Source: Pedobacter sp.
Lineage (GTDB): Bacteria > Bacteroidota > Bacteroidia > Sphingobacteriales > Sphingobacteriaceae
NCBI GenBank assembly: GCA_036388375.1
Contig: DASVRX010000188.1
Span: forward strand, 1 to 49,453
DNA: 49,453 nt
Direction of reading: 5' to 3'
The notes beneath the pieces were generated by a model. That model was not told the DNA's origin. It worked only from the letters and a program-made list of their open reading frames with translations, and searched no databases. Made by a program: the position numbers and the translations under genes. Positions 6,181-49,005 of this stretch are shown here, one piece after another. Each line of letters starts with the position of its first letter. Within the stretch, counting starts at the first letter, position 1.

Positions 6181-9100
6181 ATGAAAAATGAAATTTCGAG
6201 CACTTTGTTCAGATTCGTCAGCCTCAGGAGCCCAGACCTGGTTCAGCCGAATACCCGCAATGACTCTTTTGTGTCTCTGCCAGCAAACTTACACACCGGA
6301 GTATTTTTTGACGCGGTCAACAATAGGCCTGTAGGAACTTCGAAAGCACAGGCCTTAATTACGGCTGCTAAAAACTTCACAGCGTTTAAGTCGGAGGCTG
6401 AAGTTCGAAGCCTGGGTCCTGCTCTGCATGACTTTGCGACTTGGATTGCCCGAAATCGCACTTCTTATACTGAGCAACAGCTTCAGGCCGAAGCTCTCGG
6501 TAAAACATACCTGTCAGATATTGCAAATGGGCCGCTGTCGCGCGTTTGGAATAATTTATATTACCAGATAATCACCAATGAATCGTTTTATGTGAAAGAG
6601 GCGCTGATGCAAATGCTTATCGCGGATCATTTACTGCGACTTTTGAAACAAGGTTCTGGGGCAGAGGAATATAACAAGAAACTGATGCTTGCTAGGGTGA
6701 TTATTCCCAAAACTCTTTTTGGAGATTACACATTAGTTCAAAATGCAAGTATTCCAGATCCAGCAAAGCTGCTTCCTATATTGCCGGACAACAAAATGAG
6801 CCAGGAACTTACTGTTACAAAAGCAGAGACTGCAATCAGTATGTATCGAGCTTTGAAAAGTGAATTGGAAAGACTGGAGAATCGATATTCTAAAGAAACT
6901 TACGCAGATTACAACAAAGAATATGCTGATTTTGAAAGAACTAATGCGGCAAATTTTCGAAAGTACGGCGACGAAATGGAGGATGCAAGAAAAGCATTTT
7001 GTGCACTTCCTCGCCCTGAAAGACCATATGACCCTAAAGATCCATGTGAACAACCTGATCTGGTGCACACTCCTGAAATTCCTGCCTTCGACTATACCTT
7101 TCCAAAGGAAATAGATGCCACAACGCTCCAAACAGACCTTTCAACACAGAGTTACATTGCCCTACTGGACGTCTTAGGGTATAAATTTGTGACACCGTCC
7201 ATTCCACAGCCTCAGCCAGCCCCAGACGAATTGATTAACCAGCACGATACTTATGAAAGTTTAATAAATGTTATAAATACTGAAATCAGTTTAAACGAAA
7301 CTGAAATAATTTCGAATACAGTTTTGACAACTCCCCAAGTAAGCATCGGCGGAATCGTAACTCCTGTCTTTGAATCCACCCCTATGCAAATTGACAATTT
7401 TGTCTTATGCGGTACACGTTCCGGTTTAACTGTAGTTTTTACGCTCAGGGTGGCACTGTCAGAATTGGTGCAGGTCCTTGATATTGTTGTAACACAAAAT
7501 AACAAAGACCAAACTATCCAAACTTATACCTTATTTTCACCTAATGCGGTTAGGACAGGGAACGTTGTGCAGTTAACCAGCTTTCTTTCTTATACATTCC
7601 CGACATTCCCGGCTGCAAATGGTCCTACATTCGACTTCAGCCTTCAGCTTACCAATGGCTCATCCAAAACCATTAGTGGGATCGACTCAATGACGCTTTT
7701 GAACCGTTGTACAAGCGGCACCTTACAACAATCAGGCCCGCCTCCGGTAGCTATCCCGGAACCGATTTTTATACCATCTGGCTTTGGCCTGAAGCAAGTT
7801 GGGGTTGCAGATTATCTTAAAGTGGAACAGTCCGTTCATTGCTATGTTGAGGGCGAAGTGTCGCATATAGAAAATGTAATGGCGCGCGAATACAAAGAAA
7901 AATCAACTAGGCGATTAGTTCGCCGTGAAGAGACTACGACAACCTCAAGTGAAACAGAGCGGGAACAACTTACTGATACGACAACTGCAAACAGGTTTGA
8001 GATGCAGAATGAGACCGATAAATAATTCAGCAAAGCAATGACCTTGCAGGACACGTAAATGCAAGATATACTGGTAAGAAGTTTGTTTTGGATGCGGGAT
8101 TATCTTTTGCAAGTAATACCTCACAGGAAGACAGCGTTCGTCAGGCCCAGACCGTGGCACAGGATATTACTGAAAGGGCTCTAGAGCGCGTTGTATCTAA
8201 AGTCAAGGAAGAGCGGGTAGTTACAATGATAGAAGAGTTTGAAGAGAACAACAAACATGGTTTTGACAACCGCCGGGGTGACAATCATGTTGTGGGCGTT
8301 TACAGATGGATTGATAAGTTGTACAAAAATCAGATTTATCGCTACGATAAAAGAATGATTTTCGAATTTATGATACCTGATCCCGCAAAACTTCACACAC
8401 TAGGAATGGAAGTAGTCGGGACAGATCTGACAGAACCACTAGATCCGCGCAGTGTAGCGGGAACTATGAAGATGGCGACCTACAGCTCGGTTACTGAATT
8501 GAGTGCGGCCTATTGGGCGGGTTACTATAACGTAGAGATAACGCCTGCTCTGGAAGATGAAATTTATATTTCAGATGCTTTTGCCGATAATGGTTTAGGT
8601 GGGAACTATATGACTACAAACTACCATGTTGGAGGGAAAAATTTCTCGATGGAAATCCCTGAAGGTTACAATGCTGTAAGTGTTGCCGGTAAATTTGCCT
8701 TTGGTTTTGTTCCAAAAGATTTTGAGTGGACAAGAGGTGTTGTCACAATCGGGGATTACGAGGTGGCAATCTTAGATGTGGCTACCCAAACGAAAATAAT
8801 TAACACGACATTTCCCGGTGCCGGAATCCAGAAGAAAATAGGAATAGGATTTTTTGGTATGGATGTAGGTGGAATCTCAATATCACTTAGAGTGAAATGC
8901 AAGCGTAATGCGGAATATTTCAGGCAATGGAAGCAGGAAACATTTAAATCAATTATGGATGCCTACGAAGAAGCTTTGGCAGAACATAAGCGACGAAAAG
9001 CCGAGCAAGATAGCCTAGCGACAGAAACTAAGCGCACAAATCCAGGCTTTTACCGCCAGATCGAGAATATTATTTTGAAAAAAAATTGTATTTCTTACCT

Positions 9101-9764
9101 CATCAACCGGAACAATTCTGCGACTTACACGTATGGAAAAGATTTAGGCAACAGTGGCATTTTGTTTGGAAGTTATGAAGTTAACCTCAATAGCACACTC
9201 GACAAATACGCGTCTTTTGTCAAATTTATAGAACAAGCGTTTGAGTGGAATATTATGTCATATAACTTTTATCCATTTTATTGGGGTCCTAAAAATTCGT
9301 GGACCAGTAAGTATCAAACAGAGGAAAGCAATGACCCTATATTTCGTGCCTTCCTGCAATCAGGTATGGCAAGGGTAATTGTTACAGTACGCCCTGGTTT
9401 TGAAGAAGCAGTTCAGCTGTATCTTACTACTGGAATTCTTTGGAATGGAGGTCAAGTACCTTTAATGGGTGATTCAATGTACGTTGATCTTATGCATGAG
9501 CTTGCACTTCCAAACGGTGACAAAATTGGAAAACCTTGGATTAGCCGCGTACCGACCGCACTCACGATTTTACAAGGCAGAAGTATCGGACTTGAGGTTA
9601 CGCAAGCACTCCCATGCAATTGCGACGACACCTCCGACTTTGAAAATCCTGAAGATGTTCCTTGCAGTGATAAATTTACATTGGAAGATTTTAAGATTGG
9701 CGGCAATGATGGCCCGGAGGAACCTGTGGAACCCGCAGCACCTGTAGAACCGATTCAGCCCTAG
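6181..9764 (+). pseudogene. Large conserved protein (paralog of 45247-49005) split by a 1-nt frameshift into ORFs 6181-8025 and 8088-9764
   Basis: Both halves align collinearly with the 1252-aa ORF (TLFRFVSxRxP, GFGLKQxGxADYxKVEQ, EGEVxHIENxMARE, HGFDNRxGDxHVVGVYRW, FIEQAFEW, AFxQSGMARVIVTVRPGFEEAV). One extra A at 8020-8022 restores a ~1194-aa frame. Confidence 0.85.
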
Positions 9765-9781
9765 TAACCTAAATCATTAAT

Positions 9782-9809
9782 TCCTATGTCGTGCTTGCGC
9801 GGCATAGGA
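9782..9809 (+). terminator. Stem-loop between large gene and toxin gene (attenuator or mRNA stabiliser)
   Basis: TCCTATGTCGTG-CTTG-CGCGGCATAGGA, 12-bp stem with G-U pairs; no long U tract. Confidence 0.55.
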
Positions 9810-9821
9810 TTATAATAATAT

Positions 9822-11939
9822 ATGAGCGATAACCTATTTCCCGATAATTGGGGTTTGCAGGACGTAGCGGATGCTTCGCCGCTGTCTCCCAGTTTTCCAT
9901 CATTTCCTTTTTCTGCTAATGACGGTACTTCTACCCTTGCTTACGTCGATCAATATGTGCACCAAAATAATGCAGATTACGAGTTTACCGCAATACAATC
10001 AAACACTATTGCAGGGAGCTTCTTTGTAGGAATACCTCCAATTAAGGTAACCAGAAGTATTGTAGTGATACGCGAGCCCGCGTGTGAGACCGATATAATT
10101 CCAACCCAAATAGGTCTATATCAAGAAAGTAATGGCATTGCTGGCAACCAACCAAATGAACTTCTCGCAACAATTTACATTTACATATCTAAGAACTCAC
10201 TTAAGTTAGATTATCTATATAAGTGTAGTGAAAGCAATCTTAATGAGAATGAAATTCTGTTGTTTCTAGAAGATAACTCTGATGATTATGGTACTCAAAA
10301 GCTTTTGATTCGATTTGGTTCAGAAAAGTTGAAGCCACTGTTTTTAAATTTAAAACCAAACGGTGAAACTTTAAAAATTATAACCGAGTTGACACCTGAT
10401 TTTAACTACACTTTACTTAAAAACTTGTGTGACGACGGCATTCTTGAATTAAAATCCGAAAAATTACAGGCAATAGTGCAAGGAATGTTATGGATTTCGA
10501 CATTTTTTGAAGTACCTAAAGCAGTTGGGAACTTAGTTACACAGGTGGGGGATCTAATATCTAATAATCTAAGAATCACGGAATCATTTTGGGATTCCAA
10601 AAATAAAGAGTACTTTGAAAATAAGGAAGTTCTTCTAAAAGCTTTACAGATTGATCGTGGATTTCTGAGTAATTTCGCCACACAAGTATCCAATTTTCAA
10701 CATGTATTAGTTCTTGTAACGCCTGCTGGGAAAGAATTCGTATCCTCACAAGTTACCTTTGTAGATCTGATACTCACAACCTATAACCAATTTATTGAAG
10801 ATGTCTTTGATTTTGCGTTTGATGAAAAGGGAGGCCCATTTGACGGCATGCTAACCTTTTCGGAACGGGTGGCCTTCTTCAGTGGAATATGGAATGGCAT
10901 CATTGATTTTGTCGCAGACATTTTCAAGTTCATTGGATTTATTTTTGGAGCGTCATTTGATATTACTAAAAATTTTGACGATCTTCTTAATGCACGAGAT
11001 CTGATAAGGGAGGCTATCGAGAATTTTTCTATTTTAGATTTTTTTATTACTTGTGTAAAACTTTACATAGATTCACTTATAGAAATAAAAAAAATCTTTT
11101 TTTCAGAAAATCTCCGTGAAGATTATAACCTTGACCGAGTTGCGTACACCGGCGGATACGGTATTGCCTTCTTAGCTTCATTAGTAATTGGGGGTGAGAT
11201 TACTTCAATCTCGTCAATTTCAAAATTTAGCAAATTTATTCCTGATGACTTTTTAAAAGCAATTAATCTCAAAGGTAAGTTGGACATTAAAGGTCCAAGA
11301 GCTATAATGGCCTTAATACGTGATATTGCAGAACTTCTTAGTAAAAAAGGCTCAGAATTATATAATGAGCTAAAAAAAATCTTCGATAAAATTATAGAGT
11401 GGTTCAAAGCGAATAGGAAAGTATTTGAAAGTAAATTAGATGATGTAAAAAAATATCTTAAAAAGGCAAGACGAATACGATATTCTACTACTAGTATGCT
11501 TAAAAAATACTCTGGAGAGGCAACTGGAAGTGGATGGTGCGCCCCCAGCGCAGTTCGATATTTGGACGAATTGGAGAGGGCTCAATTCGAATTAGCAATT
11601 GTGGATGGAAAATTTTATAGTGCTGAAGGTATGCTGTTTGACACCACAATTACCAAAACTATTTTTAGCAATCAGAGGGCTATTTTTGTAATGTCTAAAG
11701 AGGGAAGAATTTACGCATCCACATCACATATTCCTAAGAAGTTTCACCACTCCAGTTTTTTGGCAGGTGAAGCAGTCGCTAGTGCAGGCGAATTAAAAGT
11801 CATTAATGGAGTACTTGTAGAAGTTACACGTAAAAGTGGTCATTATCGCCCTACGCCAGCACTTAACAATCAATTTGTTAAGCACCTAGAAACCCTTGGA
11901 ATAGATATTAAAAGCATTAAAATAAGTGATGGATTATAA
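9822..11939 (+). CDS. Polymorphic toxin with C-terminal HHSSFLAG...SGHY (IQM-like) domain
   Basis: Trunk homologous to 42579-45083 (NEIxLFxE, GIxNGxIx, DxxAYxxGY); unrelated C-terminus IFVMSKEGRIY...FHHSSFLAGEAVASAGEL...SGHYRP; small overlapping gene immediately downstream. Confidence 0.75.
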   Translation: MSDNLFPDNWGLQDVADASPLSPSFPSFPFSANDGTSTLAYVDQYVHQNNADYEFTAIQSNTIAGSFFVGIPPIKVTRSIVVIREPACETDIIPTQIGLYQESNGIAGNQPNELLATIYIYISKNSLKLDYLYKCSESNLNENEILLFLEDNSDDYGTQKLLIRFGSEKLKPLFLNLKPNGETLKIITELTPDFNYTLLKNLCDDGILELKSEKLQAIVQGMLWISTFFEVPKAVGNLVTQVGDLISNNLRITESFWDSKNKEYFENKEVLLKALQIDRGFLSNFATQVSNFQHVLVLVTPAGKEFVSSQVTFVDLILTTYNQFIEDVFDFAFDEKGGPFDGMLTFSERVAFFSGIWNGIIDFVADIFKFIGFIFGASFDITKNFDDLLNARDLIREAIENFSILDFFITCVKLYIDSLIEIKKIFFSENLREDYNLDRVAYTGGYGIAFLASLVIGGEITSISSISKFSKFIPDDFLKAINLKGKLDIKGPRAIMALIRDIAELLSKKGSELYNELKKIFDKIIEWFKANRKVFESKLDDVKKYLKKARRIRYSTTSMLKKYSGEATGSGWCAPSAVRYLDELERAQFELAIVDGKFYSAEGMLFDTTITKTIFSNQRAIFVMSKEGRIYASTSHIPKKFHHSSFLAGEAVASAGELKVINGVLVEVTRKSGHYRPTPALNNQFVKHLETLGIDIKSIKISDGL

Positions 11940-12252
11940 TATAAAACAAATGGATAAAAAAGAATTACAGATACCAATTTTCGCTCTTTACAACTTTCAA
12001 TCTCTGGAAGACATACTTCTAACAATTGATGATGCAGACTTTTTGAAAAAATCGTACTCTTTACAAGAACGGATGAATCTTTATGACGCGCTAAAGTGGG
12101 CGAAGGATAATCCAAAATATGATTTTAAGAGCATTATGGCGGATGCTCCAATTCCGCACAAGCTAAAGGTATCCAATGCAGATATTTACAAATACCTATT
12201 GAATTTTAAAATATTTATGGAATCTGAAGAATATAAGATTCTATCTGAATAA
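11926..12252 (+). CDS. Candidate cognate immunity protein
   Basis: 108 aa, overlaps the toxin stop codon; assignment is positional. Confidence 0.6.
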   Translation: MMDYNIKQMDKKELQIPIFALYNFQSLEDILLTIDDADFLKKSYSLQERMNLYDALKWAKDNPKYDFKSIMADAPIPHKLKVSNADIYKYLLNFKIFMESEEYKILSE

Positions 12253-12280
12253 GGCCGTAATAGTTGAAAAATTTACTAGG

Positions 12281-12976
12281 ATGTTAAAAAAGGATTTAAA
12301 CGAGTACATAATTTCTGGCTTAAAAAATTTTTTTGAAGTCAATGGTTATAAACTCAAAAAAACGAGCGAGTTAATTATGTTTGTAAAAAATGTTAATGAC
12401 GGTTTTCAAGACATAGCCATATCGTCTACTAATTACTACGACACGCACTTTTTAAGCTTCGGCTATTCAAAGAGGGTTAACATGATTGAAAATGTGCTGC
12501 TAGATCTCGAAAAAGAATTTATACCTAATATGTTTCATCTTTCCAAAAGCAATTCCACTTATTATTTAAATGTAAGCTATAATCAGGCGTTACCAAGCTG
12601 GTTGAAACAAGAGATAAAAACAGAACATGATGTTGATAAATATATAAATTGGATTATACAGTATACGGACAAACATGCATTTGATAGATTTGAATATCTG
12701 GATGACGTAAAAACTGTTGATAGCGAGATTAATGGGGATAATTTTTGGCTAGATGAGATAAACAAACCCTTTGGACTGCATAGATTTGATGTTTATCGAA
12801 TAGTTATTGCAAAATTAGCAAAAAGTCCTGATGAATTCGAAAACTTTAAAAATGATTTACTGGCTATCGAAGAAAAACGTCTTGAGCAGATAAGACAATC
12901 TGATGAGAAATATAAAGATTTAGAAAACTGGTTTGTTCCCAAAATTCTTACTCATTTAGAGAAAATTGTAAACTAA
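12281..12976 (+). CDS. Hypothetical protein, possible orphan immunity protein
   Basis: 231 aa, co-oriented 28 nt after the immunity candidate; no catalytic motif recognised. Confidence 0.5.
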   Translation: MLKKDLNEYIISGLKNFFEVNGYKLKKTSELIMFVKNVNDGFQDIAISSTNYYDTHFLSFGYSKRVNMIENVLLDLEKEFIPNMFHLSKSNSTYYLNVSYNQALPSWLKQEIKTEHDVDKYINWIIQYTDKHAFDRFEYLDDVKTVDSEINGDNFWLDEINKPFGLHRFDVYRIVIAKLAKSPDEFENFKNDLLAIEEKRLEQIRQSDEKYKDLENWFVPKILTHLEKIVN

Positions 12977-13081: not shown

Positions 13082-14980
13082 ATGAAAGAAACCAAAGATG
13101 ATACATTTCGAGCAGGCATTTGCATGGCCGGAGCCGTATCTGCGGGAGCTTATACCGCAGGCGTAATGGACTATCTGCTTGAAGCACTTGAACATTGGGA
13201 ACGTGCAAAAAAATTGCAGCAAGAAGGAAAATTATCAGGAATCCCAAAACATAATTTTATGATTGAAGTGTTAGGCGGGGCCTCGGCAGGCGGTATGACT
13301 GCGGCTATTACTGCGGCAGCGGTCCAGGAAAACTTTGCTCCGGTTACGCAGGCTGCTGCCAAGGATAATTCAGTAACAGCAGCAAACCCCATTTACAATT
13401 CCTGGGTGAATCTAAAAGAAAAAAGTGACGGCGATGGCAAGCTTGACATGATGGATTTCATGCTTGCGACTGATGACATTGAAAACGACAGCGAACATAA
13501 TTCATGTCGTGAAGTCCGCGCTGGGTTCAACTCAGTTTTCGTCGAGGAACTTGCGTCAGCAGTACTTGACAAAAAATATTCCAGCCGGTACAAAAGGCCG
13601 TACATAGCGAAAGATGCTGATATATTTACTACGATCACCAATTTACGTGGATTCTCCTATAAAGTGACCTTCCAAACCTCATCAGGAAGCAGGGAACACA
13701 GAATGAAAATGCATCGCGACTTTGCTTTTTTTAAATTGAATCATAATGAAAACGACCTGTCAGAGGATACTTCTTCAGAAGCCAGTACTGCCACAACTTC
13801 GGAAGAGCTGCCAAATGATGGAAGGATCCCGGTCAATTTCTCAACCGGACTTAACACTGATGTCCTGAAACAAGCTGCCATGGCGACCGGTGCTTTTCCT
13901 GTTGGACTTGAAAGCAGGGATCTGAAAAGGCAACGTGAATACATTGAACGTAACAAATACCTCAACCTGATCCTTGCAGGCGGAAGTGCTGAAGGTGTCG
14001 AATATGAGTTTCTGCCCAAGGGCGATTTTCTATCGTTGAACGTTGATGGCGGTGTTATCAATAATGAACCTTACGAACTCACGCAGCAATTGCTCGACGA
14101 CAGGCGAAAATCAACAGAACCTTCGTACGAAACAAAGACAAGCGCGTCCGAGTTTGATTCAATGGTGCTTATGATAGATCCGTTTCCGAATGATGAAGAT
14201 GTTGCGGAACCTGAAGATTTCATTCCAAAAAAAGCATGGAAAAATGTTGTGCCTGCAATTCTTTCGGCCATGCGCGGAGAGCTGATGATGAAAGATGAGC
14301 AGGTTCGGCGGGCTTACCTTAGTAACGATTATACAAGGTTCCTGTTAATGCCCGTTCGCGAAAAAGAGAAATTCACTATCGCATGTGGCTCTTTGGGCGG
14401 CTTTGGCGGATTCTTCTCAAAAGATTTCAGGAAGCACGATTTCTTTCTTGGACGACGAAATTGCCAGCGCTTTCTGCAGCATCATTTCACCGTTCCGGAG
14501 AATGCTGGCAATCCCATTTTAAAATTTGGCTACAGCGACTCCACCTTTGGAAAGCAAAATTCAAATGGTGAAATGTATTTACCTATTTTACCAGACCTAC
14601 GGGTTGAGGGAGATGATACTGTAGGCTATCGCATTGCAGTGCCTAATGAGGAGTCCATATATCCCTATCCAAAAATTAAACTATCTTATATTCTTGGACT
14701 TGAGAAGAAATTTAAGAAAAGGATAAAGTGCGTGTTTGACAATATAGGCAACCCCAAGACAGACGCAGCAGCCAGTGAAGCAGAAAAAAGCCCAATTGTG
14801 CGACGGCTTCGAAAAAAATCTTGGCTAAATAAGCTAACCAGTCCAATCAAAGGCAAATTTACCGACCTCTATCTTTCGATTGGAAAAAGCTTTGGCAAAG
14901 ATATGGCCGCCGAGTTTTTTATTGATGCAATCATTACCGATATGGAGAAACGGGGACTGCTCGAAGATGACAAAAAGTAA
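13082..14980 (+). CDS. Patatin-like phospholipase
   Basis: Gly-rich MAGAVSAGAY, nucleophile elbow GASAG, catalytic DGG (VDGGVINNEP), MATGAFP motif. Confidence 0.85.
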   Translation: MKETKDDTFRAGICMAGAVSAGAYTAGVMDYLLEALEHWERAKKLQQEGKLSGIPKHNFMIEVLGGASAGGMTAAITAAAVQENFAPVTQAAAKDNSVTAANPIYNSWVNLKEKSDGDGKLDMMDFMLATDDIENDSEHNSCREVRAGFNSVFVEELASAVLDKKYSSRYKRPYIAKDADIFTTITNLRGFSYKVTFQTSSGSREHRMKMHRDFAFFKLNHNENDLSEDTSSEASTATTSEELPNDGRIPVNFSTGLNTDVLKQAAMATGAFPVGLESRDLKRQREYIERNKYLNLILAGGSAEGVEYEFLPKGDFLSLNVDGGVINNEPYELTQQLLDDRRKSTEPSYETKTSASEFDSMVLMIDPFPNDEDVAEPEDFIPKKAWKNVVPAILSAMRGELMMKDEQVRRAYLSNDYTRFLLMPVREKEKFTIACGSLGGFGGFFSKDFRKHDFFLGRRNCQRFLQHHFTVPENAGNPILKFGYSDSTFGKQNSNGEMYLPILPDLRVEGDDTVGYRIAVPNEESIYPYPKIKLSYILGLEKKFKKRIKCVFDNIGNPKTDAAASEAEKSPIVRRLRKKSWLNKLTSPIKGKFTDLYLSIGKSFGKDMAAEFFIDAIITDMEKRGLLEDDKK

Positions 14981-14992
14981 TATTAATCTACA

Positions 14993-15775
14993 ATGGCAAG
15001 TTTAAAGGTTCTAAAAACAGGCAGCTCAGGCGCAGAAGTAAAAAAGTGGCAGTACTTTTTAATTGGCCAGGAATTCTATGCAGGAAAAGCAGATGGCGAT
15101 TTTGGGCCTCGCACTATGGAGGCAACGATCAAATTTCAAAGGAAACATCGGCTTACAGCAGACGGAATTGTAGGAAATCAATCCTATGCCACTGCAATGC
15201 TGCTTGGCTTTGGATTAATTGAGGATAACAGTAGCGAAAAATTCAGCGCAGGCTGGCCACCAAAACCAGATTTTAAACCTTTGCTTACAGACGATGAAAA
15301 ACGAAAGCTTTTTGGAAAATTCTCGTTCGTTCACTCCCCTATTCCGTCTTGTGCAGAACATATTAAAGTCACCGACGGTTGGCAGGCAGCTAATATTATA
15401 GGAATCAATATTCCGCAGATATCGAAAATAGCAGGAATCAGCAAAACTTACTTCCATAAGAAAGCCGCTTTACAGTTACAGAAACTATGGGTTGAGTGGG
15501 AAGAAGCTGGTTTGTTACATCTAGTCTTAACCTGGGGCGGAACTTACAATCCGCGGTTTATTCGCGGCAGCAGGAAAACATTAAGCAATCACGCCTTTGG
15601 AACTGCTTTCGATATAAATATAGCGTGGAACAGGTTAGGAACTGTTCCTGCCTTAGCAAACAAAATAGGATCAGTAAGGGAACTTGTCACTATTGCCAAC
15701 AATAATGGATTTTATTGGGGCGGACATTTCACAAGGCAAGATGGGATGCACTTTGAGGTGGCGAAATTAATCTAG
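14993..15775 (+). CDS. Peptidoglycan-binding domain + M15 family metallopeptidase (endolysin-like)
   Basis: PG_binding_1 pattern (GSSGAEVKKWQ...ADGDFGPRT...FQ...LTADGIVG); M15 motifs SNHAFGTAFD and DGMHFE; no signal peptide. Confidence 0.85.
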   Translation: MASLKVLKTGSSGAEVKKWQYFLIGQEFYAGKADGDFGPRTMEATIKFQRKHRLTADGIVGNQSYATAMLLGFGLIEDNSSEKFSAGWPPKPDFKPLLTDDEKRKLFGKFSFVHSPIPSCAEHIKVTDGWQAANIIGINIPQISKIAGISKTYFHKKAALQLQKLWVEWEEAGLLHLVLTWGGTYNPRFIRGSRKTLSNHAFGTAFDINIAWNRLGTVPALANKIGSVRELVTIANNNGFYWGGHFTRQDGMHFEVAKLI

Positions 15776-20864: not shown

Positions 20865-20880
20865 TTATAAAAATTATAAG

Positions 20881-28219: not shown

Positions 28220-28275
28220 GAAATCACGGTAGACCAAAAAGAATATCACGATCCACACTATATAAATCTTTCACT

Positions 28276-34417: not shown

Positions 34418-34577
34418 TTATCCGCTCGTGTAGTGTTTGAGAACGACAAACAAAGCAGGAATCGCAAATACTCCTAATAATGTTCCTATCAACATTCCTC
34501 CTACCGCACCAGTTCCAATTAAACGGTTACCAACTGAACCGGCACCCGATGCAAACATCAGCGGCACCAATCCGAGG
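34418..34577 (-). pseudogene. C-terminal fragment of an RND efflux permease (AcrB family)
   Basis: LGLVPLMFASGAGSVGNRLIGTGAVGGMLIGTLLGVFAIPALFVV matches the last two TM helices of AcrB-type proteins. Confidence 0.75.
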
Positions 34578-36628: not shown

Positions 36629-36637
36629 AACATCTAC

Positions 36638-40406: not shown

Positions 40407-40700
40407 ATTCTATTTCTTTTTATTCCGCATAAAATTACCATATTATAAACTGACGAGGTGATTCAAAAGCTAAGAATCGTTCATAATCGGTACAAAGATG
40501 TGTCCAAGTTATACAGTGCTTTTTAGATGATGGCTTCCGTAAGCTTTAGAATAATTATAAAGTGACATATTCGCGAAGTGGTCAAACATCAATTGGGTAT
40601 CGGAGGATGAGTTCCAAACTTGTATAAAACTTTAATAGGAGCTAAAAAACTCCAAATCCTCATCCCGAAAGTTCGATAATTGTATATGACCCTCCACCAG

Positions 40701-40737
40701 GGGACAATTCGATTTTTTGATCGAATTGTCCCTTTTT
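40701..40737 (+). terminator. Intrinsic terminator-like hairpin
   Basis: Perfect 13-bp stem GGGACAATTCGAT / ATCGAATTGTCCC, 6-nt loop, followed by TTTTT on the + strand. Confidence 0.7.
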
Positions 40738-40765
40738 ATTTTGTATAACTTTAGCTTTCGGCCCT

Positions 40766-41147
40766 AGGTCTTTTGGTATCGCTCCTAATAAGACTCGCAG
40801 GAACTCAAGGATATAATCCAGAAGCGGCTTGAGATTTTTTGACTGTTGCTTCAGACTGGCTAATAAATCTAAGATTGTATCAAAAATCTCTGCTGATTTT
40901 GCGGCAGCTTTTCCGGTCAATTTAAATATGCTTTCAAAAATTTTTTTAAAACTCTTCAGCAGGACCGCAGCAGCTCTTTCCACAGTTGCCGCACCACCGG
41001 TAGCTAAAATCTCAATAATGATCTGGATGATCATTCCAATTATATAGCCCGTATAATAGGCTATTTCATCAATAGAAAATGATATGGAACTAGCGCTTTT
41101 GAAGAGGATTGACGGAATGTTTATAAGCAATGCCAGGTATTCTTCAA
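40766..41147 (-). repeat. Near-identical copy of toxin trunk segment 43264-43645 (truncated cassette; ORF 40660-41130)
   Basis: Constant 2498-bp offset alignment encoding IPSILFKSASSISFSIDEIAYYTGY...LLGAIPKDL. Confidence 0.9.
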
Positions 41148-41229
41148 AAAGTTATGGTATCTACTGGACTTTCTAAAAGTAGGGGACGATTATAAAAACT
41201 TAAAGTTCCCGATAGGAATCATGTTTTTT

Positions 41230-41487
41230 TTAATCGAGAGTTTGTTCTATGTATTCCAAACCTTTTTGCGTTATCGAATATTTCTTCTGATCATCTTGAG
41301 AAATCAGTTTTTCGTCTTTCATTTCCTGTAAGGAATTTAGCAACTCATGTGCCCAAAGTGGCTCATCATTTTCTGTATTAAAAAGACTCGTATTCAATAA
41401 TAGTTCTAGTCTTATTACTTCGATCTTTTTGGAGTTTGCTCTATTTATTGCCTCCAATACCTTCAATATTCTAAGTTTACTTTTCAT
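41230..41487 (-). CDS. Candidate immunity protein of the orphan toxin tip (winged-helix-like)
   Basis: 85 aa, 11 nt after the orphan tip; ends LQEMKDEKLI...YSITQKGLEYI. Confidence 0.55.
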   Translation of the reverse strand: MKSKLRILKVLEAINRANSKKIEVIRLELLLNTSLFNTENDEPLWAHELLNSLQEMKDEKLISQDDQKKYSITQKGLEYIEQTLD

Positions 41488-41498
41488 GTTTATTATTT

Positions 41499-42008
41499 TT
41501 ATCTTCCTAAAATCTCTCTGTCGCTTTGAGATAAATAATCAATTTCTTTTATGTCGGGATGATATAATGATCTTCCGCCGTTATCGAATTCGTGTAGTTT
41601 GTAATCTTCTAATGTCGCTGAATGTGCATTGTTATATACTTCCTCAGGAATTAAGTCATTCTTCGTGTTCTCAAATCCTATATTTTTATATCTTTCGTAT
41701 TCTCTCGTCTCGTGTGTAAAGAATTTTCTATCCCAGTCTGTGATTTCTACGTGGCCTTTCTGAATTTTTTCTAATCTTTCGATCATTTTTGTGTTCGCAG
41801 TAATTTCTTCAAATCGGCTCAAATGTTTGCGAATGATTTCAATACCTTTTTTAGTTATTTTAGCATCTTTCCATACTAAGTTCAAGATTTTTCCTCCGCA
41901 GTTATTAATATCAAAGCTACGTTTACAATATTTTCCGATAATTATTTTGCTAGCTCGTTTTGTTTTCGCCAAATCATCCAAATACTTCTTCGCCTCTTTA
42001 TTACTCAT
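41499..42008 (-). CDS. Orphan polymorphic toxin C-terminal cassette
   Basis: Begins inside the junction repeat shared with the full toxin; HLSRF...N..MIERL...D..FFTHETRE...NNAHSATLEDY resembles tips I recall from Rhs/PAAR/pyocin-like toxins. Confidence 0.72.
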   Translation of the reverse strand: MSNKEAKKYLDDLAKTKRASKIIIGKYCKRSFDINNCGGKILNLVWKDAKITKKGIEIIRKHLSRFEEITANTKMIERLEKIQKGHVEITDWDRKFFTHETREYERYKNIGFENTKNDLIPEEVYNNAHSATLEDYKLHEFDNGGRSLYHPDIKEIDYLSQSDREILGR

Positions 42009-42069
42009 TTTTTTGAGTCTTTCAGCGAGCTCTTCTACTTCCTTCTTTAGTCCCTCTAAATAGTTCTTT
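41990..42069 (-). repeat. Junction repeat matching 43067-43145
   Basis: Encodes KELFRGTKKEVEELAERLKKMSxKEA; the orphan copy carries one extra base. Confidence 0.9.
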
Positions 42070-42240: not shown

Positions 42241-42576
42241 TTAACTGTTTTCGGACACAAAATTTTCAAATTTTTCCATAAAATCTATAAACTCTGAAAA
42301 TGACCAAACAAAGTCAGCTTCTACACTTTTATGATGAGTATCAAAAAAGTAAACTTCATCTGGGTAGATACTTATGATAAAATCACTACCTTCTACTTGA
42401 TATTCAAATTTGCTATTTTCCGTTAATGCCTTTGATTTATCAATGATCATTCTGATCTCAGATGGGGTCCAGCCCCACCAGGCTATCTCTCTCAAAGCTT
42501 CTATTCTATTATCTAAAATTTCTACTCCATACATTCCTTGAATACCATAAGCATTCTTTGTGAATTTATATTTCAT
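42241..42576 (-). CDS. Candidate immunity protein for the EndoU toxin
   Basis: 111 aa, acidic/aromatic, starts 2 nt after the toxin stop. Confidence 0.65.
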   Translation of the reverse strand: MKYKFTKNAYGIQGMYGVEILDNRIEALREIAWWGWTPSEIRMIIDKSKALTENSKFEYQVEGSDFIISIYPDEVYFFDTHHKSVEADFVWSFSEFIDFMEKFENFVSENS

Positions 42577-42578
42577 AT

Positions 42579-45083
42579 TTACTGTATTATTCTAAATGGA
42601 TACGCATTAGTAATATTTCCTAAATTATCGACTTCTATTAGTATTTCAAATCTTCCAGAACTATCTGGGAAATTAAATTTATTATTTGCCCATTTTAATT
42701 GTTTTCCAGCACCTACTGTCTTTTCATACACCAAAGCAATTTCTTCCTTTACCCTTTGTATATTCCAATTTTTAGGAAACATCGATGATTTTGCCGTTTT
42801 TTCAATCCATTGCATTTGTTTATATCGCACGTCTATCAAAGCATCAAATGGTAAGTCATCAACTGGTTCTGTCAGTTCTCTTCTCACTCTAATATTGTCC
42901 CCAATAACAGAATGATTATGACCACCTGTACCTTTTAATTCTAATATTCCTTTCTCTGATTTTAATTTCAACTCCCCATCAAAATGCAAGTGAAATTTCT
43001 TTTCAAACTTACTTGACCACTTTGTCAAAGCGTTTCTTCTGCTTTTAATTTTATCAATATAGTTCCTCGCCTCTTTATCACTCATCTTTTTGAGTCTTTC
43101 AGCGAGCTCTTCTACTTCCTTCTTAGTTCCTCGGAACAGTTCTTTTCCTTCCTTAACTAATGCATAAATGTCATCGCCAACATGCACCGGCAGGCCGCCA
43201 TACAGAGGTTTTCCTTGAGGGACTTTTTTAATGACTACATCAAATTTATTAAAAAACGCAATAAGGTCTTTTGGTATCGCTCCTAATAAGACTCGTAGGG
43301 ACTCAAGGATATCGTCCAGAAGTGGCTTGAGATTTTTTGACTGTTGCTTCAGACTGGATAATATATCTAAAATCGCATCAAAAATCTTGGCTGATTTTGC
43401 GGCAGCTTTTCCGGCCAATTTAAATATGTTTTCAAAAATTTTCTTAAAACTCTGCAGCAGGACTGCAGCAGCTCTTTCCACAGTTGCCGCACCACCGGTA
43501 GCTAAAATTTCAATAATGATCTGGATGATCATTCCAATTATATAGCCCGTATAATAGGCTATTTCATCAATAGAAAATGATATGGAACTTGCGCTTTTGA
43601 AGAGGATTGACGGAATGCTGATTAGCAATGGAAGGCATTCTTCAATAAATTTAAAAAATGCTTTGATGTTTTCTTTGCTGAAGATGTTCAGTAATACTTC
43701 TATTTGGTTTTCTACAATTTCAATGAACAGAATTATATAACTCCCAATGTTCGCAGCTACATTTGCGGCTGCTTTTTGTATATCTAATATTGCATTACTA
43801 AGTATAGCAATTAAATCAAAGATACCTTTAATTGCCTCAATCAATCCATTTATAATACCAACTACCAAGGCATTGTACGCAACAAATCCAATCTCCAGTA
43901 AATTGACACCTTTTTTCAACGGGTTTTTGATGAATTCAATGAAATAGTCGATAGCATTGATTACCTGTCGGATAAGTTTTTCGAAGGTTTTTGATTTTAA
44001 AAAGAAACCGCCTTCCTGGCCTGTTTGTTCGTTTACTCTGGCCAGCAGTATTGCTTTTAAATTTTTCAATTTTTCAAGGGCACTGGCCGTAATATTATTT
44101 GCGGGAACCCCTTTAGAAACAACTTCACTGTTTTTTAATTTCTTAAACAACTCAATTCCCGGAAGCAACAGCTGCGGTTTTTCGACTGGAATACCTTCAT
44201 CATCATAATACCGCCATTTTTCGTCTGCCAGTACTAAGGCGCCCAAACCACCTGCAATGGTTTCAGCTACTACTTTAATACTTTCCATAGATAACTTAGA
44301 GGTATATATCACAACTTTGTCAAGAAGCCCTAATACTATTTTTTTTACTAAGTAAATTCTCTCCGAATCTTTATTTTTTACATAATCCGTAAGTATTTCC
44401 CGTAATGAGCTTTCATCTACATTTGATTTAAAAATGGAAGCAAGTTTGCTTATATTCCGATAGGGGAAAATACCGAGATTACTAATATTAGCACCTGTTC
44501 TAACCTTTACTACCGAGCCAAAATAATTGTTTTTGTCATTTACTTCAATGAAAAGGACAATTTCATTATAATATAATTCCGTAACTTCTTGGTAGGCTCT
44601 GGTAATTTTGGCGCCGTCTGTTGAGATGAACAGCACTACAGCCATCTGTTTCTCCTTCAAAACATCGTTAACTAACATTAAAGGGGTTTTAACAATAGCA
44701 GTTTTGGTATTTCTATCCATAACTTCTACGTCCTCCATTAAATCTAATGACTTTACGAAATACTTCGTACCTAATTTATATACTATGGTTTGTAAAGTAT
44801 TGGTTCCTACCTCAACTTGAGAATCTTGAAGTTCCGCGTATGTACCTACCTTTGTACTCTTAAGGTAGTCTACCTCGAAATAATCAAGTGTATTACCATT
44901 GTCTATCTTTCGATATATTTCTCCGTCCTTTTCAACTTCGTAGAAATGTTCCATAACAGCAGGAACAGTTGGATTCTCATCATCTTTAATGACCATGCTT
45001 TCATTAAAAACATATATATTCTCGGTCCTGTTAGAATAAGAACACCCTCCAAATACCTTAATGCCGTGCTCAATTGCTCTCAT
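42579..45083 (-). CDS. Polymorphic toxin with C-terminal bacterial EndoU RNase domain
   Basis: HFDGE...GTGGH...KSSMFPKNW...ITNAYP is the EndoU toxin pattern; trunk homologous to 9822-11939. Confidence 0.82.
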   Translation of the reverse strand: MRAIEHGIKVFGGCSYSNRTENIYVFNESMVIKDDENPTVPAVMEHFYEVEKDGEIYRKIDNGNTLDYFEVDYLKSTKVGTYAELQDSQVEVGTNTLQTIVYKLGTKYFVKSLDLMEDVEVMDRNTKTAIVKTPLMLVNDVLKEKQMAVVLFISTDGAKITRAYQEVTELYYNEIVLFIEVNDKNNYFGSVVKVRTGANISNLGIFPYRNISKLASIFKSNVDESSLREILTDYVKNKDSERIYLVKKIVLGLLDKVVIYTSKLSMESIKVVAETIAGGLGALVLADEKWRYYDDEGIPVEKPQLLLPGIELFKKLKNSEVVSKGVPANNITASALEKLKNLKAILLARVNEQTGQEGGFFLKSKTFEKLIRQVINAIDYFIEFIKNPLKKGVNLLEIGFVAYNALVVGIINGLIEAIKGIFDLIAILSNAILDIQKAAANVAANIGSYIILFIEIVENQIEVLLNIFSKENIKAFFKFIEECLPLLISIPSILFKSASSISFSIDEIAYYTGYIIGMIIQIIIEILATGGAATVERAAAVLLQSFKKIFENIFKLAGKAAAKSAKIFDAILDILSSLKQQSKNLKPLLDDILESLRVLLGAIPKDLIAFFNKFDVVIKKVPQGKPLYGGLPVHVGDDIYALVKEGKELFRGTKKEVEELAERLKKMSDKEARNYIDKIKSRRNALTKWSSKFEKKFHLHFDGELKLKSEKGILELKGTGGHNHSVIGDNIRVRRELTEPVDDLPFDALIDVRYKQMQWIEKTAKSSMFPKNWNIQRVKEEIALVYEKTVGAGKQLKWANNKFNFPDSSGRFEILIEVDNLGNITNAYPFRIIQ

Positions 45084-45202: not shown

Positions 45203-45238
45203 AAAAAAACACCCACGACACGAAATGCCATGGGTGTT
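45203..45238 (-). terminator. Intrinsic terminator between large gene and toxin gene
   Basis: Minus strand AACACCCATGGCA-TTTCG-TGTCGTGGGTGTT followed by TTTTT. Confidence 0.75.
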
Positions 45239-45246: not shown

Positions 45247-48200
45247 TTATGCCGGCCCGGTGGTTCCTTCTATTGCGTTCTTAAGTGCCTGTACCGAAAT
45301 TTGGGCTACTATCTGGCGAGGTGAATCATCAGTCGTCAGCTGCAGGTAACCATCATTGAGGTCGATGTTCTCAATGTGGCGGACTCCTTCTTCATTTGAA
45401 GTGCCAACCTGAGCCGTATTCTGCTCTATTTGTGACGACTGTGGTACCTGTTCCGGATGCTCAAAATCCTCCATATCTTCATTATTAAAAGGCAAAGCTT
45501 TAGTTACGTTAAGACCAATGCTTCCCGCCTGCAAAATAGTCATCGATGTCGGCACCCGTGTTGGCCATGCCTTACCTACCTTTTCGCCTTCAGTTGTACG
45601 CATCTCATCTACAATAGACATGAAAAGTTCATCACCGATGACCGGTACTTCGCCACCATTCCAGATCTGGCCTGTTTGCATGTAATACCTGACAGCTTCT
45701 TCAAAACCCGGCCTCACGGTTACAATGACCCGCGCCATACCGCTTTGCATAAAGGCCTTAAAGACGTGGTCATGAGTTTGGTCGTATTGGTACATCGTTG
45801 TCCAATTGTTCCGGTTAGCCCAATAGAACGGATAGAAATAATAGCTCATGATTTCCCACTCAAATGCCTGCTCGATGAATTTGACAAAAGCGGCATATTT
45901 GTCGAGATCCGCATTATTGTTGATCATCCCGTTTTCAAACGTTAATTTGGATTCGGTTGTATTATTCATTTTGTAAAAATCCTTTCCAAACGTTAGTTTC
46001 GCATTTGGGCTACTGGAAATAATATACGAGATACAGTTTTTTCGCAAAATAATATTTTCGATTTCCCTGTAAAAACCGGGATTAGATCCAAGGATGTGAA
46101 CACCGTTATTGGCTTCCATTGCCAAGTCTTCATTGTATTTTTGCAACGCCTCTTCATACGCTGACATAATTGCATTGAACGATTCCATTTGCCATTGTGC
46201 TTTTGCTTCGGCTGTCAATTTGCAACCAACACTTGCAGTTATGTCGCCGGCAACGTGGTTTCCTAAAGTATAAGAAACTGGAACTTCATTCACAAAACCA
46301 AAAATTGCAACCGAATTAAAAGATATCGACTGCGAATGCCAGCGCGAAGTATTCGACACCCTTACAGTTCCAACCGTCAACGATAATATGTTTCCCCCTG
46401 AATCATTATCACTGGAAGCGGTAAAAGTTCCCGAGGCATTAATCGCAGCATATCCTTCGGGAATCTTAATTTTACCATTTCCTGATATCGACTCGGTATT
46501 CATTAATTTCGCCGCAGCACCTCCGCCCATGATACTAAAAGAATCACCAACTGTAATGTATTCTGCTGGCATAGGTTTTACTTCAACATTGTAATAACCA
46601 CTCCAGTACTGCAATCTCGCATCATTTATCTGAGAATAATTTTCCAGTGTATGGGAGGCATCTGTTCTCGGATTTTTGGGCTCAGGCACTGCGCCCGCTT
46701 TCTTCTGATCAATTAAAGTGGTCATTGCCAGATTATGTAAACGGGCAGGTTCAGGAATCGAGAATTCAAACATTAAGCGTTTACCATAGTTCACGATCTG
46801 ATTCTTAAAAACTTTATCTACCCATCGGTACACGCCCACTACATGTTTGTCTCCTTTGCGGTTATCGAAACCATGGCTGTTGTTTTCTTCAAATTCTTCG
46901 AGGACCTTTTCAATACGCTCTTCCTTGACTTTGCTAACAATACGGTCTAATGCCCGTTCTGTTATTTCTTTCGCATTAGTTACAGCCTGCCGGGCACTTT
47001 CTTCTTTAGAATTATTTGTTGCGAAGTTTGCGCTTGCGCTCATGCTAAAAGTTTTAGGATCACCATACGTTGCAGTTACGCCTGCACTAAAATCCTTACT
47101 GCTCGCAATGACTTTTGCCACCTCGCTTTGCATCTCAAATCGGTCGACAGTAGAAGTATCGGTCAGTTGTTCCCTTTCCGTTTCAGATGATGATGTTTCT
47201 GTTACTTCTCTACGGCTCAATCTTCGGGTAGACTTTTCTTTAAACTCGCGGGCCATGATATTTTCAATGTGGGCCACTTCACCTTCAACATATCCTTGAA
47301 TTGTTTGCTCCACCTTGTTGTAATCAGCGATGCCAATTTGTTTCAGGCCAAAGCCGGTTGGTATAAAATGCTGCTCCGGATCTACAGTAGAACTTCCCGG
47401 TGTTCCCGGTGTTCCTTCTTCTTCAGATTCAGCAAGAACAGGGAACTTTATCATTCCTTTATAGATCGAAGTGAGTACAAAATTTGGAACTACTACAGTG
47501 GCCGTTTGCCCGTTTGTAAATTGAAAAGTGATGGAAAGCTCTTTAAGATTAGCACTGATTCCGCTCATTGACAGGTTCATCAAGGCATCATATCCCGTAT
47601 GATGAATAACTGTCGAGGAATTTTTGACCACAAAAGTGTCATCGTTTCGTGTCATCGTATACTGGACCGCAGTGATCTTCCATGAGGCATCGGGAATTCC
47701 GACCATAATCTGCAGCCTTCGTATAGCAGCTGACATGAACCCAGATCGCCTGCTTTTAATTTCATATTCAAAAGGCTGCAGCGGACTTGGAGTATTTGGT
47801 ACAGCTACGGTTGTTCCGCCAATAACCACGGTCGTCGTACCACTGTTCACAGTGTTTTGAGTATAATTATTCGTATTTTGATTTAGAAGTTGTGCTATTA
47901 ATGAACTTGTAGAAGAAAACGTTGACCCACCCGGCGAAAATGATCCAAATGTAAAACCGCGGTTTTGCAGCCCATTATCTTGGGTTTCTTCTTCATCTTC
48001 GGCTGGGTTGATGATACTTTCGTACGCGTCTAATGACTGACTGCTTAGGTAGTTCGATAAAAATTTAATATCCATCTCCTCTGTAAAACTAAATCCAAAT
48101 TCCGGCAAATCCGGTTGCGGAACTGAAGGGATTTGCTGGCAAGGGTCATTGGGATTATATACAGTATTTGGATCCTTAACATTGCACCATTGATTTTTAG

Positions 48201-49005
48201 CATCTTCAACTTGCTCGTTATACTTATCTAAAATTGGCTTGATCGTTTGTTGGTAAGCACTATACTCTTTGTCATAAGCTGCCTGATACTCTTTTCTAAA
48301 AGCTTGCTCTGCTATGGCCAATTCTTCCTGAAGTCGTGTAAGAACCTCAATATTTTGTTGGGCAACGGATTGGTTTTCTAAAGATTGCATAACAGGATTA
48401 GCAAAAACAGCCTCTGTTGCCGATCTGGCGGATAAAACTCGGGATGCACTAATATTTACCGAAGGATCCTCAACAAAAAGAACTTTTGGCAAAACTATTT
48501 TTGCCAATGCCCGATCTTTATATGTCCCAATTCCTGTCTCTTTTACGACGTGGTTGGCTAAAAGCAGCTGCATTATAAGTTCCTTCGCATAAAAATCTTT
48601 TTGTGTTACAACTTGATAGAACAGGTTATTCCACAAAGTGATCATGTGCGAATTAATATCGCCCACACCAATGGCCATACTTGCTATTTCTGCTTCAGTG
48701 GCTTTAAATCGGTTTTTGGAAAGCCATTGCGAGAACTCATACATTTTTATACTAAGAGCTTTTATCTTTTCAACATCCAAAACTTTTGATGGCGTATTTG
48801 GTACAATTTGCGCAAAAGTAACCGCCGCGTTTTGCAGCGCTTCCCTCTTGGTACTGTAGGTCTTATTGTTTACCGCATCCAGAAATGCACCTCTGCTATT
48901 TCCTTTGTCGGTTACAAAACCAGGGTTTTCTTCAAAATCACTTGAAAGTTCCGGTGCTCTCATGCTTACAAAGCGAAAGAGCGTGTTTTTAATTTCATTG
49001 CTCAT
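45247..49005 (-). CDS. Large conserved hypothetical protein (1252 aa), putative toxin carrier/translocase
   Basis: Intact paralog of 6181-9764; no signal peptide; Ser/Thr-rich core with an alternating amphipathic segment. Function is inferred from context only. Confidence 0.8.
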   Translation of the reverse strand: MSNEIKNTLFRFVSMRAPELSSDFEENPGFVTDKGNSRGAFLDAVNNKTYSTKREALQNAAVTFAQIVPNTPSKVLDVEKIKALSIKMYEFSQWLSKNRFKATEAEIASMAIGVGDINSHMITLWNNLFYQVVTQKDFYAKELIMQLLLANHVVKETGIGTYKDRALAKIVLPKVLFVEDPSVNISASRVLSARSATEAVFANPVMQSLENQSVAQQNIEVLTRLQEELAIAEQAFRKEYQAAYDKEYSAYQQTIKPILDKYNEQVEDAKNQWCNVKDPNTVYNPNDPCQQIPSVPQPDLPEFGFSFTEEMDIKFLSNYLSSQSLDAYESIINPAEDEEETQDNGLQNRGFTFGSFSPGGSTFSSTSSLIAQLLNQNTNNYTQNTVNSGTTTVVIGGTTVAVPNTPSPLQPFEYEIKSRRSGFMSAAIRRLQIMVGIPDASWKITAVQYTMTRNDDTFVVKNSSTVIHHTGYDALMNLSMSGISANLKELSITFQFTNGQTATVVVPNFVLTSIYKGMIKFPVLAESEEEGTPGTPGSSTVDPEQHFIPTGFGLKQIGIADYNKVEQTIQGYVEGEVAHIENIMAREFKEKSTRRLSRREVTETSSSETEREQLTDTSTVDRFEMQSEVAKVIASSKDFSAGVTATYGDPKTFSMSASANFATNNSKEESARQAVTNAKEITERALDRIVSKVKEERIEKVLEEFEENNSHGFDNRKGDKHVVGVYRWVDKVFKNQIVNYGKRLMFEFSIPEPARLHNLAMTTLIDQKKAGAVPEPKNPRTDASHTLENYSQINDARLQYWSGYYNVEVKPMPAEYITVGDSFSIMGGGAAAKLMNTESISGNGKIKIPEGYAAINASGTFTASSDNDSGGNILSLTVGTVRVSNTSRWHSQSISFNSVAIFGFVNEVPVSYTLGNHVAGDITASVGCKLTAEAKAQWQMESFNAIMSAYEEALQKYNEDLAMEANNGVHILGSNPGFYREIENIILRKNCISYIISSSPNAKLTFGKDFYKMNNTTESKLTFENGMINNNADLDKYAAFVKFIEQAFEWEIMSYYFYPFYWANRNNWTTMYQYDQTHDHVFKAFMQSGMARVIVTVRPGFEEAVRYYMQTGQIWNGGEVPVIGDELFMSIVDEMRTTEGEKVGKAWPTRVPTSMTILQAGSIGLNVTKALPFNNEDMEDFEHPEQVPQSSQIEQNTAQVGTSNEEGVRHIENIDLNDGYLQLTTDDSPRQIVAQISVQALKNAIEGTTGPA

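Follow-up and report, generated by a model that had tools for sequence, protein, structure and literature searches.

A large protein encoded ahead of interchangeable toxin and immunity genes: an apparently undescribed class of polymorphic toxin system in Bacteroidota

How do the toxins encoded in the stretch of DNA studied here reach their target? The stretch (hereafter the window) is the 49,453-nucleotide contig DASVRX010000188.1 (C188) of the Pedobacter sp. assembly GCA_036388375.1, a genome that is 71.6% complete, and it carries two loci of the same build. Each opens with a gene for a large protein, which we call BIG, and the toxin-bearing protein encoded behind BIG is called the cargo; L and G numbers denote fetched loci and genomes. 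We find that a swappable toxin-immunity cassette always follows BIG. Our best reading, at a probability of about 0.5, is that BIG, released by lysis, forms a beta-barrel pore through which the toxin would cross a rival's outer membrane. That the system is antibacterial, polymorphic and in need of BIG we consider very probable; the need for BIG and the bacterial target are both well supported by the genomics. It is a real class of polymorphic toxin system, apparently undescribed, and its defining part is the separate large protein.

The first-pass annotation of this DNA had proposed that both loci follow one order, i.e. a conserved protein of about 1200 aa, a hairpin, a protein of 705 or 834 aa and a small coupled gene, and this order is seen in both. 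Locus B, on the reverse strand, consists of the intact delivery candidate BIG-B (45247..49005, 1252 aa, without family match), a 14-pair terminator-like hairpin in the gap behind it (45208..45238), cargo B (42579..45083, 834 aa) and a 111-aa gene (42241..42576), followed by an orphan tip, its 85-aa neighbour gene and a trunk duplicate that has no tip. Locus A, on the forward strand, consists of BIG-A (6181..9764), a 12-pair hairpin (9782..9809), cargo A (9822..11939, 705 aa), genes of 108 and 231 aa, a patatin gene and a gene with peptidoglycan-binding and M15 peptidase domains. The hairpins stand directly after the large genes, as had been noted, and their z scores against shuffles are -4.4 (locus B) and -5.3 (locus A). 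BIG-A is a frameshifted paralog whose pieces are 34% and 46% identical to BIG-B, so the ~1200-aa protein expected in both loci is a single open reading frame only in locus B. The GC content is 42% in the large genes, 35% in the cargos and 30-33% in the small genes, the genome average being 39.5%.

Cargo B is composed of a leader, a conserved domain (149-293), a hydrophobic helical trunk (~372-595) and a tip (~734-829). The claimed homology of the two trunks was borne out, with a pairwise E of 4.5e-5 (25% over 207 aa) and an E of 2.8e-14 after one profile round, and the cargos share a second domain upstream of the trunk (149-293 in cargo B, 118-259 in cargo A). The tips had been called EndoU and IQM-like. 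The former assignment holds for cargo B (PF14436, E 4e-5, just under the cut-off); the latter is the label of the first-pass annotation, and the tip of cargo A, which is unrelated to that of cargo B and recurs as an orphan in L044, L053 and L056, has no Pfam match and, like the orphan tip of locus B, no significant match in the PDB searches.

Does BIG belong to the toxin system at all? Our main survey comprised the 60 best BIG loci, all from Flavobacteriia, with 55 intact BIG genes. A cargo of 590-950 aa lies within 4.5 kb in 54 of these 55, and the remaining one is cut by a contig end. The trunk of the window type (trunk 1) was found in 32 cargos, an unrelated trunk 2 that does not overlap with trunk 1 in 28, and other architectures in eight. 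In other words, two unrelated trunks and trunk-less enzymes all follow the same large protein and, judged from the sequences, BIG and not the trunk is the constant part of the system. Whole cargo classes swap behind near-identical BIGs. On trees with 54 labelled BIG rows (FastTree, no shuffle control), 15-20 changes of class are counted, among them changes between sister rows such as L034/L036, L061/L065 and L071/L072. On the same count, and equally with no shuffle control, no BIG region tracks the cargo class clearly better than another.

The presence of the genes follows the same tendency. In one large genus, BIG occurs in about one genome in six (26/151), and the 14 genomes with trunk 1 are all among these 26 (2.4 expected, with a P value that is too optimistic since kin do not count as independent cases). 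In a sample of 400 genomes of the phylum BIG is present in 11; trunk 1 occurs in eight genomes, seven of them with BIG (G055 among the contributors to the trunk 1 profile), and trunk 2 in three, all with BIG. The two-component class put forward by the first-pass annotation is supported: of the two outcomes that it had named as refuting the class, i.e. families that do not co-occur elsewhere, or a trunk that matches a known cargo marker with killing that needs that machine, neither was observed. A distant trunk copy (E 2e-9) lies in the BIG-less genome G094, in an effector with a different N-terminus whose neighbours we take to be of eCIS (extracellular contractile injection system) or DUF4157 type; the trunk-like segment therefore suggests a hydrophobic module common to other systems. 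In BIG-positive genomes, some cargos are encoded far away from the BIG gene. As a separate observation, G055 also holds a trunk-2-like protein in a BIG-less operon of very large genes (1475, 659, 709, 947 and 2241 aa; L209, contig C216), possibly another undescribed delivery system.

BIG could conceivably be a stand-alone pore-forming toxin, perhaps aimed at predators or eukaryotes, and sit in one conflict island with toxins that are delivered in another way. Such a role would suit the BIG genes whose neighbours do not look like toxins, and the BIG homolog on a Bacillus thuringiensis plasmid. It is hard to square with a trunk that never occurs without BIG in the 151 congeneric genomes, and with a cargo slot that is kept while its content changes, and we hold it to be highly unlikely.

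The tips are diverse. The 59 trunk-bearing cargos fall into 36 tip clusters, and the same tip can be found on both trunk types. A toxin-type Pfam domain, of 12 kinds in all, was detected in 23 of the 60 scanned candidates: Tox-MPTase4 (7), EndoU (3), C39 (2), Tle1 (2) and Gln_amidase (2), as well as WHH, YwqJ deaminase, RelA/SpoT, CdiA_C, Ntox28, DUF3990 and CHAP; most tips have no Pfam match. It is conspicuous that the seven trunk-less cargos (Tle1 and CHAP by Pfam, lysozyme-like by our own motif reading) lack a hydrophobic segment (KD19 maximum 0.5-1.55), whereas such a segment is present in 31 of the 32 trunk-1 cargos. Periplasmic action thus goes with the absence of a trunk and cytoplasmic action with its presence, as predicted by delivery across the outer membrane only. 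Moreover, six of the seven trunk-less cargos are followed by a gene with a signal-peptide-like N-terminus (by eye), and two such loci sit in genomes without TssC, sheath or tube.

A small gene stands directly behind the cargo in 49 of 53 cases. Among the representatives scanned are members of the immunity families SUKH-3, SMI1/KNR4, Imm35 and DUF2931. The 111-aa gene is the likely immunity gene for the EndoU tip: its homologs lie directly 3' of tip homologs in other loci, and each of the seven cargo B tip homologs has one behind it. The 108-aa gene of locus A (11926..12252) is a candidate immunity gene with weak likeness (E 0.6) to genes 3' of the same tip elsewhere; the 231-aa low-GC gene behind it (12281..12976), without homolog among the fetched loci, is possibly an orphan immunity gene.

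Tip-immunity pairs travel together across loci, and arrays of orphan cassettes occur in L013, L018, L019, L056 and others. In the window such a cassette, with its homology arm, spans 41230-42069. It consists of a 169-aa toxin tip (41499..42008), whose type closes a full-length cargo in L026, and its likely 85-aa immunity gene (41230..41487); the pair recurs in L020. The arm (41976-42069, 94 bp, 88%) matches the pre-tip region of cargo B. Orphan tips had been claimed for locus B in the plural; this one is real, with a partner, and 40660-41130 was rejected as an orphan toxin, being a trunk copy that ends without a toxin domain. The duplicate as a whole (40660..41153) includes 388 bp that are 93% identical to 43264-43651 and ends at a 16-pair inverted repeat (40699-40734). 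Taken together, variable tips, downstream immunity genes and orphan cassettes are what defines a polymorphic toxin system at the sequence level. We note in addition an array without BIG (L205, G083:C1:144000-155500) beside an insertion-sequence-like gene; it lies about 20 kb from the BIG locus and comprises several orphan cassettes as well as a full trunk-1 cargo.

Could a known machine deliver these cargos? BIG might be an adaptor or chaperone that loads them on a type VI secretion system of subtype iii (T6SSiii), an eCIS, T9SS (the type IX secretion system) or vesicles. TssC is present in 32 of 61 BIG genomes, cargos of the Tle1 and PT-TG types are known from type VI and type VII secretion, and the trunk-like segment of G094 lies beside genes that we presume to be of the eCIS type. 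The survey of the 61 genomes, which covered markers of T6SSiii and eCIS, speaks against it. A sheath match was found in 23 and neither TssC nor sheath in 17, of which 16 also lack the tube family (controls positive); TssD is missing from all nine tested among the 29 that lack TssC, the control again being positive. Five of the 16 machine-negative genomes are listed as 99-100% complete, ten have no completeness figure and one is the 71.6% genome of the window. No signal peptide or T9SS tail was seen and homologs occur in monoderms and archaea, so that we regard an adaptor role as very improbable.

In accordance with this, readings based on T6SSiii only or eCIS only were rejected, on account of the 16 genomes without TssC, sheath and tube. 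The trunk has no match to any curated cargo marker, and VgrG, PAAR and Hcp were not found in BIG loci; the first-pass annotation had likewise seen no Rhs, VgrG, PAAR, Hcp, two-partner secretion, LXG or MuF proteins, and none of these families matched the proteins of the window. A TANFOR reading was rejected as well: neither the TANFOR domain (TIGR02542) nor the T9SS C-terminal tail was found on the window proteins and cargos scanned, and the hydrophobicity profiles of BIG and the window cargos show no hydrophobic N-terminal segment.

If no known machine is required, BIG itself becomes the candidate. BIG has no match in Pfam, NCBIfam, PHROG or PDB by sequence, and neither BIG, its profile nor 44 compact homologs match a Pfam or PDB sequence, Binary_toxB/PA14 included. 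Of 7987 candidates scored with its C-terminal half, 1869 proteins were matches, and at least 728 stretches turned up in species-representative genomes. The distribution is patchy, BIG being present in three of 60 relatives in addition to the genus and phylum samples above, and the family reaches Bacillota, Actinomycetota, Proteobacteria and one archaeon. Its core is found on 13 plasmid records (Chryseobacterium, Bacillus, Tsukamurella, Streptomyces, Sinorhizobium/Ensifer, Cupriavidus and the archaeon Natronorubrum). Phage records gave no BIG match, and five viral contigs did. In the ESM Atlas BIG falls in unnamed clusters, and the trunk has no match there at 0.9 or more. Compact forms of ~610-660 aa consist of the core alone, and a separate gene upstream encodes the N-terminal domain in three or more metagenome loci (L104, L105 and L125). 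On the B. thuringiensis plasmid BIG is followed by a ~385-aa partner that has no Pfam match and a hydrophobic C-terminus, and similar-sized partners occur in four other loci (the set being L090, L101, L138, L142 and L146).

BIG-B can be divided into an N-terminal helical domain with a long helix (1-330), an immunoglobulin-like domain (411-513), a beta-strand core (554-751), a jelly-roll (814-930) and a C-terminal domain (930-1190). The core, which was not resolved in the first full-length model (fold searches with that model gave two beta-sandwiches only), was modelled at a predicted local distance difference test score of 79.7, with four strands of 21-29 residues around a low-confidence insert. 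This insert of ~131 aa holds an amphipathic hairpin (639-663); residues 641-661 have a beta periodicity of 48 against 0.4 for helix, and the pattern is repeated in distant compact forms. Insert length is 131-138 in 233 of 242 sequences. Conservation is highest in the core (71%) and the C-terminal domain (64%) and drops to 27% in the jelly-roll and 25% in the immunoglobulin-like domain. The jelly-roll is TNF/tail-spike-like in the fold comparison, and Foldseek ranks 1-7 for the model are iota Ib and CDTb, all weak. The strands, insert and jelly-roll of the model have the layout of a beta-pore protein, and a pore is predicted with somewhat better than even confidence. With BIG ahead of swapped toxin and immunity genes, and many genomes lacking injection machines, BIG likely forms this predicted membrane pore. 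That the large protein carries or translocates the toxin, as first proposed, is the step for which we have the beta-pore layout of the model as a pointer.

Two other roles for BIG have to be weighed against this structure. If BIG built a particle (a tube, shell or spike) to carry, package and display the cargo, leaving the membrane to be crossed by the cargo trunk, the long strands, the TNF/tail-spike-like jelly-roll and the tail-fibre-like genes adjoining BIG in some loci would be accounted for; a surplus of BIG would be equally compatible, and the trunks weakly resemble tape-measure proteins, a likeness that is probably compositional. It leaves the conserved amphipathic hairpin without explanation, and lipases and wall hydrolases that lack a trunk have no means of their own to cross a membrane; we consider a particle distinctly unlikely. 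According to a perforin-granzyme logic, BIG would open a wide hole through which co-released enzymes diffuse without binding it. The 15-20 swaps of unrelated cargo classes on the BIG tree, also between sister rows, the unrelated folded enzymes that are its partners outside Flavobacteriia, and the solo cargos away from BIG in BIG-positive genomes are all in its favour. Each protomer, however, has one clear amphipathic hairpin, BIG has no MACPF/CDC match, and the N-terminal leaders that some cargos have in common across unrelated trunks look like loading signals; we consider the wide hole unlikely. That BIG docks the cargo is predicted, at slightly less than even odds.

How would proteins without a signal peptide leave the producer? 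A strong hairpin lies within 60 bases of the BIG stop in 33 of 54 loci, compared to 4 of 53 after cargo stops, and the hairpin sequences are unrelated. Wall- or membrane-lytic genes are found in 27 of the 60 loci: M15 peptidase and patatin in 16, CHAP and holin (PF05105) in eight, and one member of a pair in three. The hairpin after BIG and the neighbouring endolysin, holin or patatin genes suggest an excess of BIG and release by lysis, and lysis of some producer cells is slightly favoured as the route. In the window both a hydrolase and a patatin are present and no holin was recognised. The patatin-like phospholipase (13082..14980) and the endolysin-like gene with peptidoglycan-binding and M15 peptidase domains (14993..15775), a candidate release enzyme, extend locus A beyond the 6181-12976 originally assigned to it; the two genes (13082-15775) had been left out. 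A 591-aa homolog of the patatin ends a cassette in G327, where it adjoins a 197-aa gene read by eye as a cell-wall amidase. A 345-aa patatin was found in 15 of the 151 genomes of the genus, all BIG-positive. Patatins directly follow BIG in other lineages, and for this reason the patatin could be a second cargo instead. Large signal-less Tc toxins are released lytically by holin/endolysin/spanin cassettes (PMC10847048), and by analogy a similar route may apply to BIG and its cargo.

We can thus outline how a BIG pore might work. The hairpin would yield more BIG than cargo, as a ring needs, and both proteins would exit by producer lysis via the neighbouring endolysin together with holin or patatin. 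The variable jelly-roll and immunoglobulin-like domains would bind the target surface; the ~131-residue insert would stretch out into a long beta hairpin and put its amphipathic tip (639-663) into the membrane, the channel being built from several copies. Once the cargo has passed to the periplasm, lipases and wall hydrolases could act there at once, nucleases and other cytoplasmic tips would cross the inner membrane by means of the hydrophobic trunk, and kin would be protected by the downstream immunity gene.

Several observations weigh against this outline. In the model, the binary-toxin fold matches have an E of about 5e-5, template modelling (TM) scores of 0.10-0.12 and root-mean-square deviations of 31-45 A, and a viral fold search gave unrelated viral proteins scoring equally, all low-TM. 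VIA-align matched the jelly-roll alone and had no match in its lists for the long-strand scaffold, which does not amount to a new fold. The insert is the low-confidence part in both models, residues 671-701 are strongly helical in pattern, and the two best alternating windows fall mid-insert in just 76 of 242 sequences (a per-sequence test, the signal being column-level). No single domain is common to all cargos, so no common docking module was found, and the leader motif occurs in 16 cargos only and is absent from the window's two. As for release, 33 of the 60 loci have no lysis module within the fetched flanks. Three of the 11 BIG genomes of the phylum sample have neither trunk, and outside Flavobacteriia the gene after BIG often encodes a protein-arginine deiminase, a patatin or an amine oxidase (immunity genes were not surveyed there). 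Finally, BIG is broken in one window copy and in several relatives. In BIG-A the frameshift lies near 8015-8030 (first frame 6181-8025, second frame ending at 9764); the break is present in the run that may be the source and absent from a depth-2 contig piece of a second run, a piece that may be a relative or an error.

Among known systems, binary A-B toxins (anthrax protective antigen, C. perfringens iota Ib, C. difficile CDTb) are similar in having separate genes for the pore subunit, which is predicted here, and the enzymatic cargo, in the long strands, the serine/threonine-rich insert with an amphipathic tip and the separate beta-sandwich binding domain, and as the weak top Foldseek matches. 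They differ in that BIG has no sequence similarity to them, a fold not superimposable in the model and no signal peptide that we could see; its insert of ~131 residues is also longer than that of protective antigen. Moreover, BIG cargos are polymorphic, come with immunity genes and include wall hydrolases, which argues for a bacterial target. With the aerolysin/ETX-MTX2 toxins BIG shares an amphipathic hairpin of the pre-stem type between long serine/threonine-rich strands (column-level, weak per sequence), and the strand-strand-insert-strand-strand order of its core matches the order in that family. In contrast, BIG is far larger, is coupled to a cargo gene and has no Pfam or fold match; the aerolysin core fold was not among its listed fold matches.

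TANFOR polymorphic toxins share with BIG cargos the phylum and the pool of tips and immunity genes. According to PMC7073777, toxins are also encoded just downstream of the TANFOR marker gene, and TANFOR proteins mostly (about 87%) have a Sec signal and sit with T9SS substrates. The BIG system differs in lacking a TIGR02542 match or signal peptide and in always having the second large gene. Effector cassettes of T6SSiii and eCIS resemble BIG cassettes in their Tle1/DUF2931 pairs, EndoU and deaminase tips and orphan cassettes; BIG loci differ in having no VgrG, PAAR or Hcp, and 16 of the 61 BIG genomes lack the machine. Tc toxins with their type X secretion lysis cassettes (PMC10847048) are likewise large signal-less proteins beside holin/endolysin genes. 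The BIG system has no Tc or Rhs domains, and its commoner module is the M15 peptidase and patatin, without a recognised holin. No description of the system was found in the literature searched, accession numbers and locus tags included, nor in the available portions of PMC12419801 and PMC3482391; supplements, patents and subscription papers could list the family.

Outside Flavobacteriia, the 56 next-gene products include patatin (6), protein-arginine deiminase (5), PT-TG (3), amine oxidase (2) and Tox-MPTase4 (2) by Pfam, as well as PhoD, LysM and a weak Het-C, and 35 have no match. Tentatively, and at less than even odds, BIG may be a general-purpose, syringe-free translocase, i.e. a lysis-released long-stem beta-barrel into which bacteria and archaea load one enzyme or another; in Flavobacteriia it would be a contact-free antibacterial binary toxin acting across the Gram-negative outer membrane, and in other phyla its load would be deiminases, lipases and oxidases meant for other targets. 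In the usual view, bacteria fight one another mainly with syringes, with contact-dependent filaments or with single-chain bacteriocins that exploit importers, and the binary pore-plus-enzyme toxins known to us attack animal cells. A pore dedicated to letting unrelated enzymes into Gram-negative cells would, if true, add a new class of delivery. Many orphan toxin genes of Bacteroidota that have no secretion system would be accounted for, BIG would serve as a marker in the search for new toxin and immunity domains, and protein translocation across the outer membrane would become testable with two purified proteins.

Some loci contain further genes. In 13 loci (L034, L035, L050, L053, L060 and eight more) a gene of 112-123 aa without Pfam match, which we take to be nucleotidyltransferase-like, lies between BIG and cargo, and in at least five loci the conserved hairpin behind BIG falls within its coding sequence. 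Large variable proteins are found near BIG: 513-520 aa after it in L043, L045, L049, L051, L052, L057, L058 and L069, with BppL_N in L039 and L059, and of 850-1450 aa before it in L048, L062, L063, L071 and L072. They resemble fibre or adhesin accessories and may set the target range.

As for the surroundings of the window loci, promoter scans were at chance level. BIG-B clusters with Flavobacterium proteins, though the genome belongs to another family in which two of 36 relatives match, and its placement may reflect horizontal transfer or mis-binning. The toxin loci are flanked by an Eco57I-type restriction-modification gene, an HSDR_N-ATPase fusion and an Mrr-type nuclease (1-5735 and 39378-40406). 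Between them, after an SbcCD pair, lies a defence cluster (20830-33197) with a metallo-beta-lactamase hydrolase, trypsin-CTD4, MComp1 and an SMC-like ATPase (ABC-3C type), then MksE/MukE and neighbours (Wadjet-like). Part of the gene at 32232-33197 recurs in degenerate and inverted form at 34418-34970 (71% over 153 bp), and this copy overlaps an AcrB C-terminal fragment. The operon at 35849-39420, with an Ogg-HhH glycosylase, PfkB fused to a nucleoside 2-deoxyribosyltransferase, and QueC-like and nitroreductase-like genes, is a possible base-modification or defence module.

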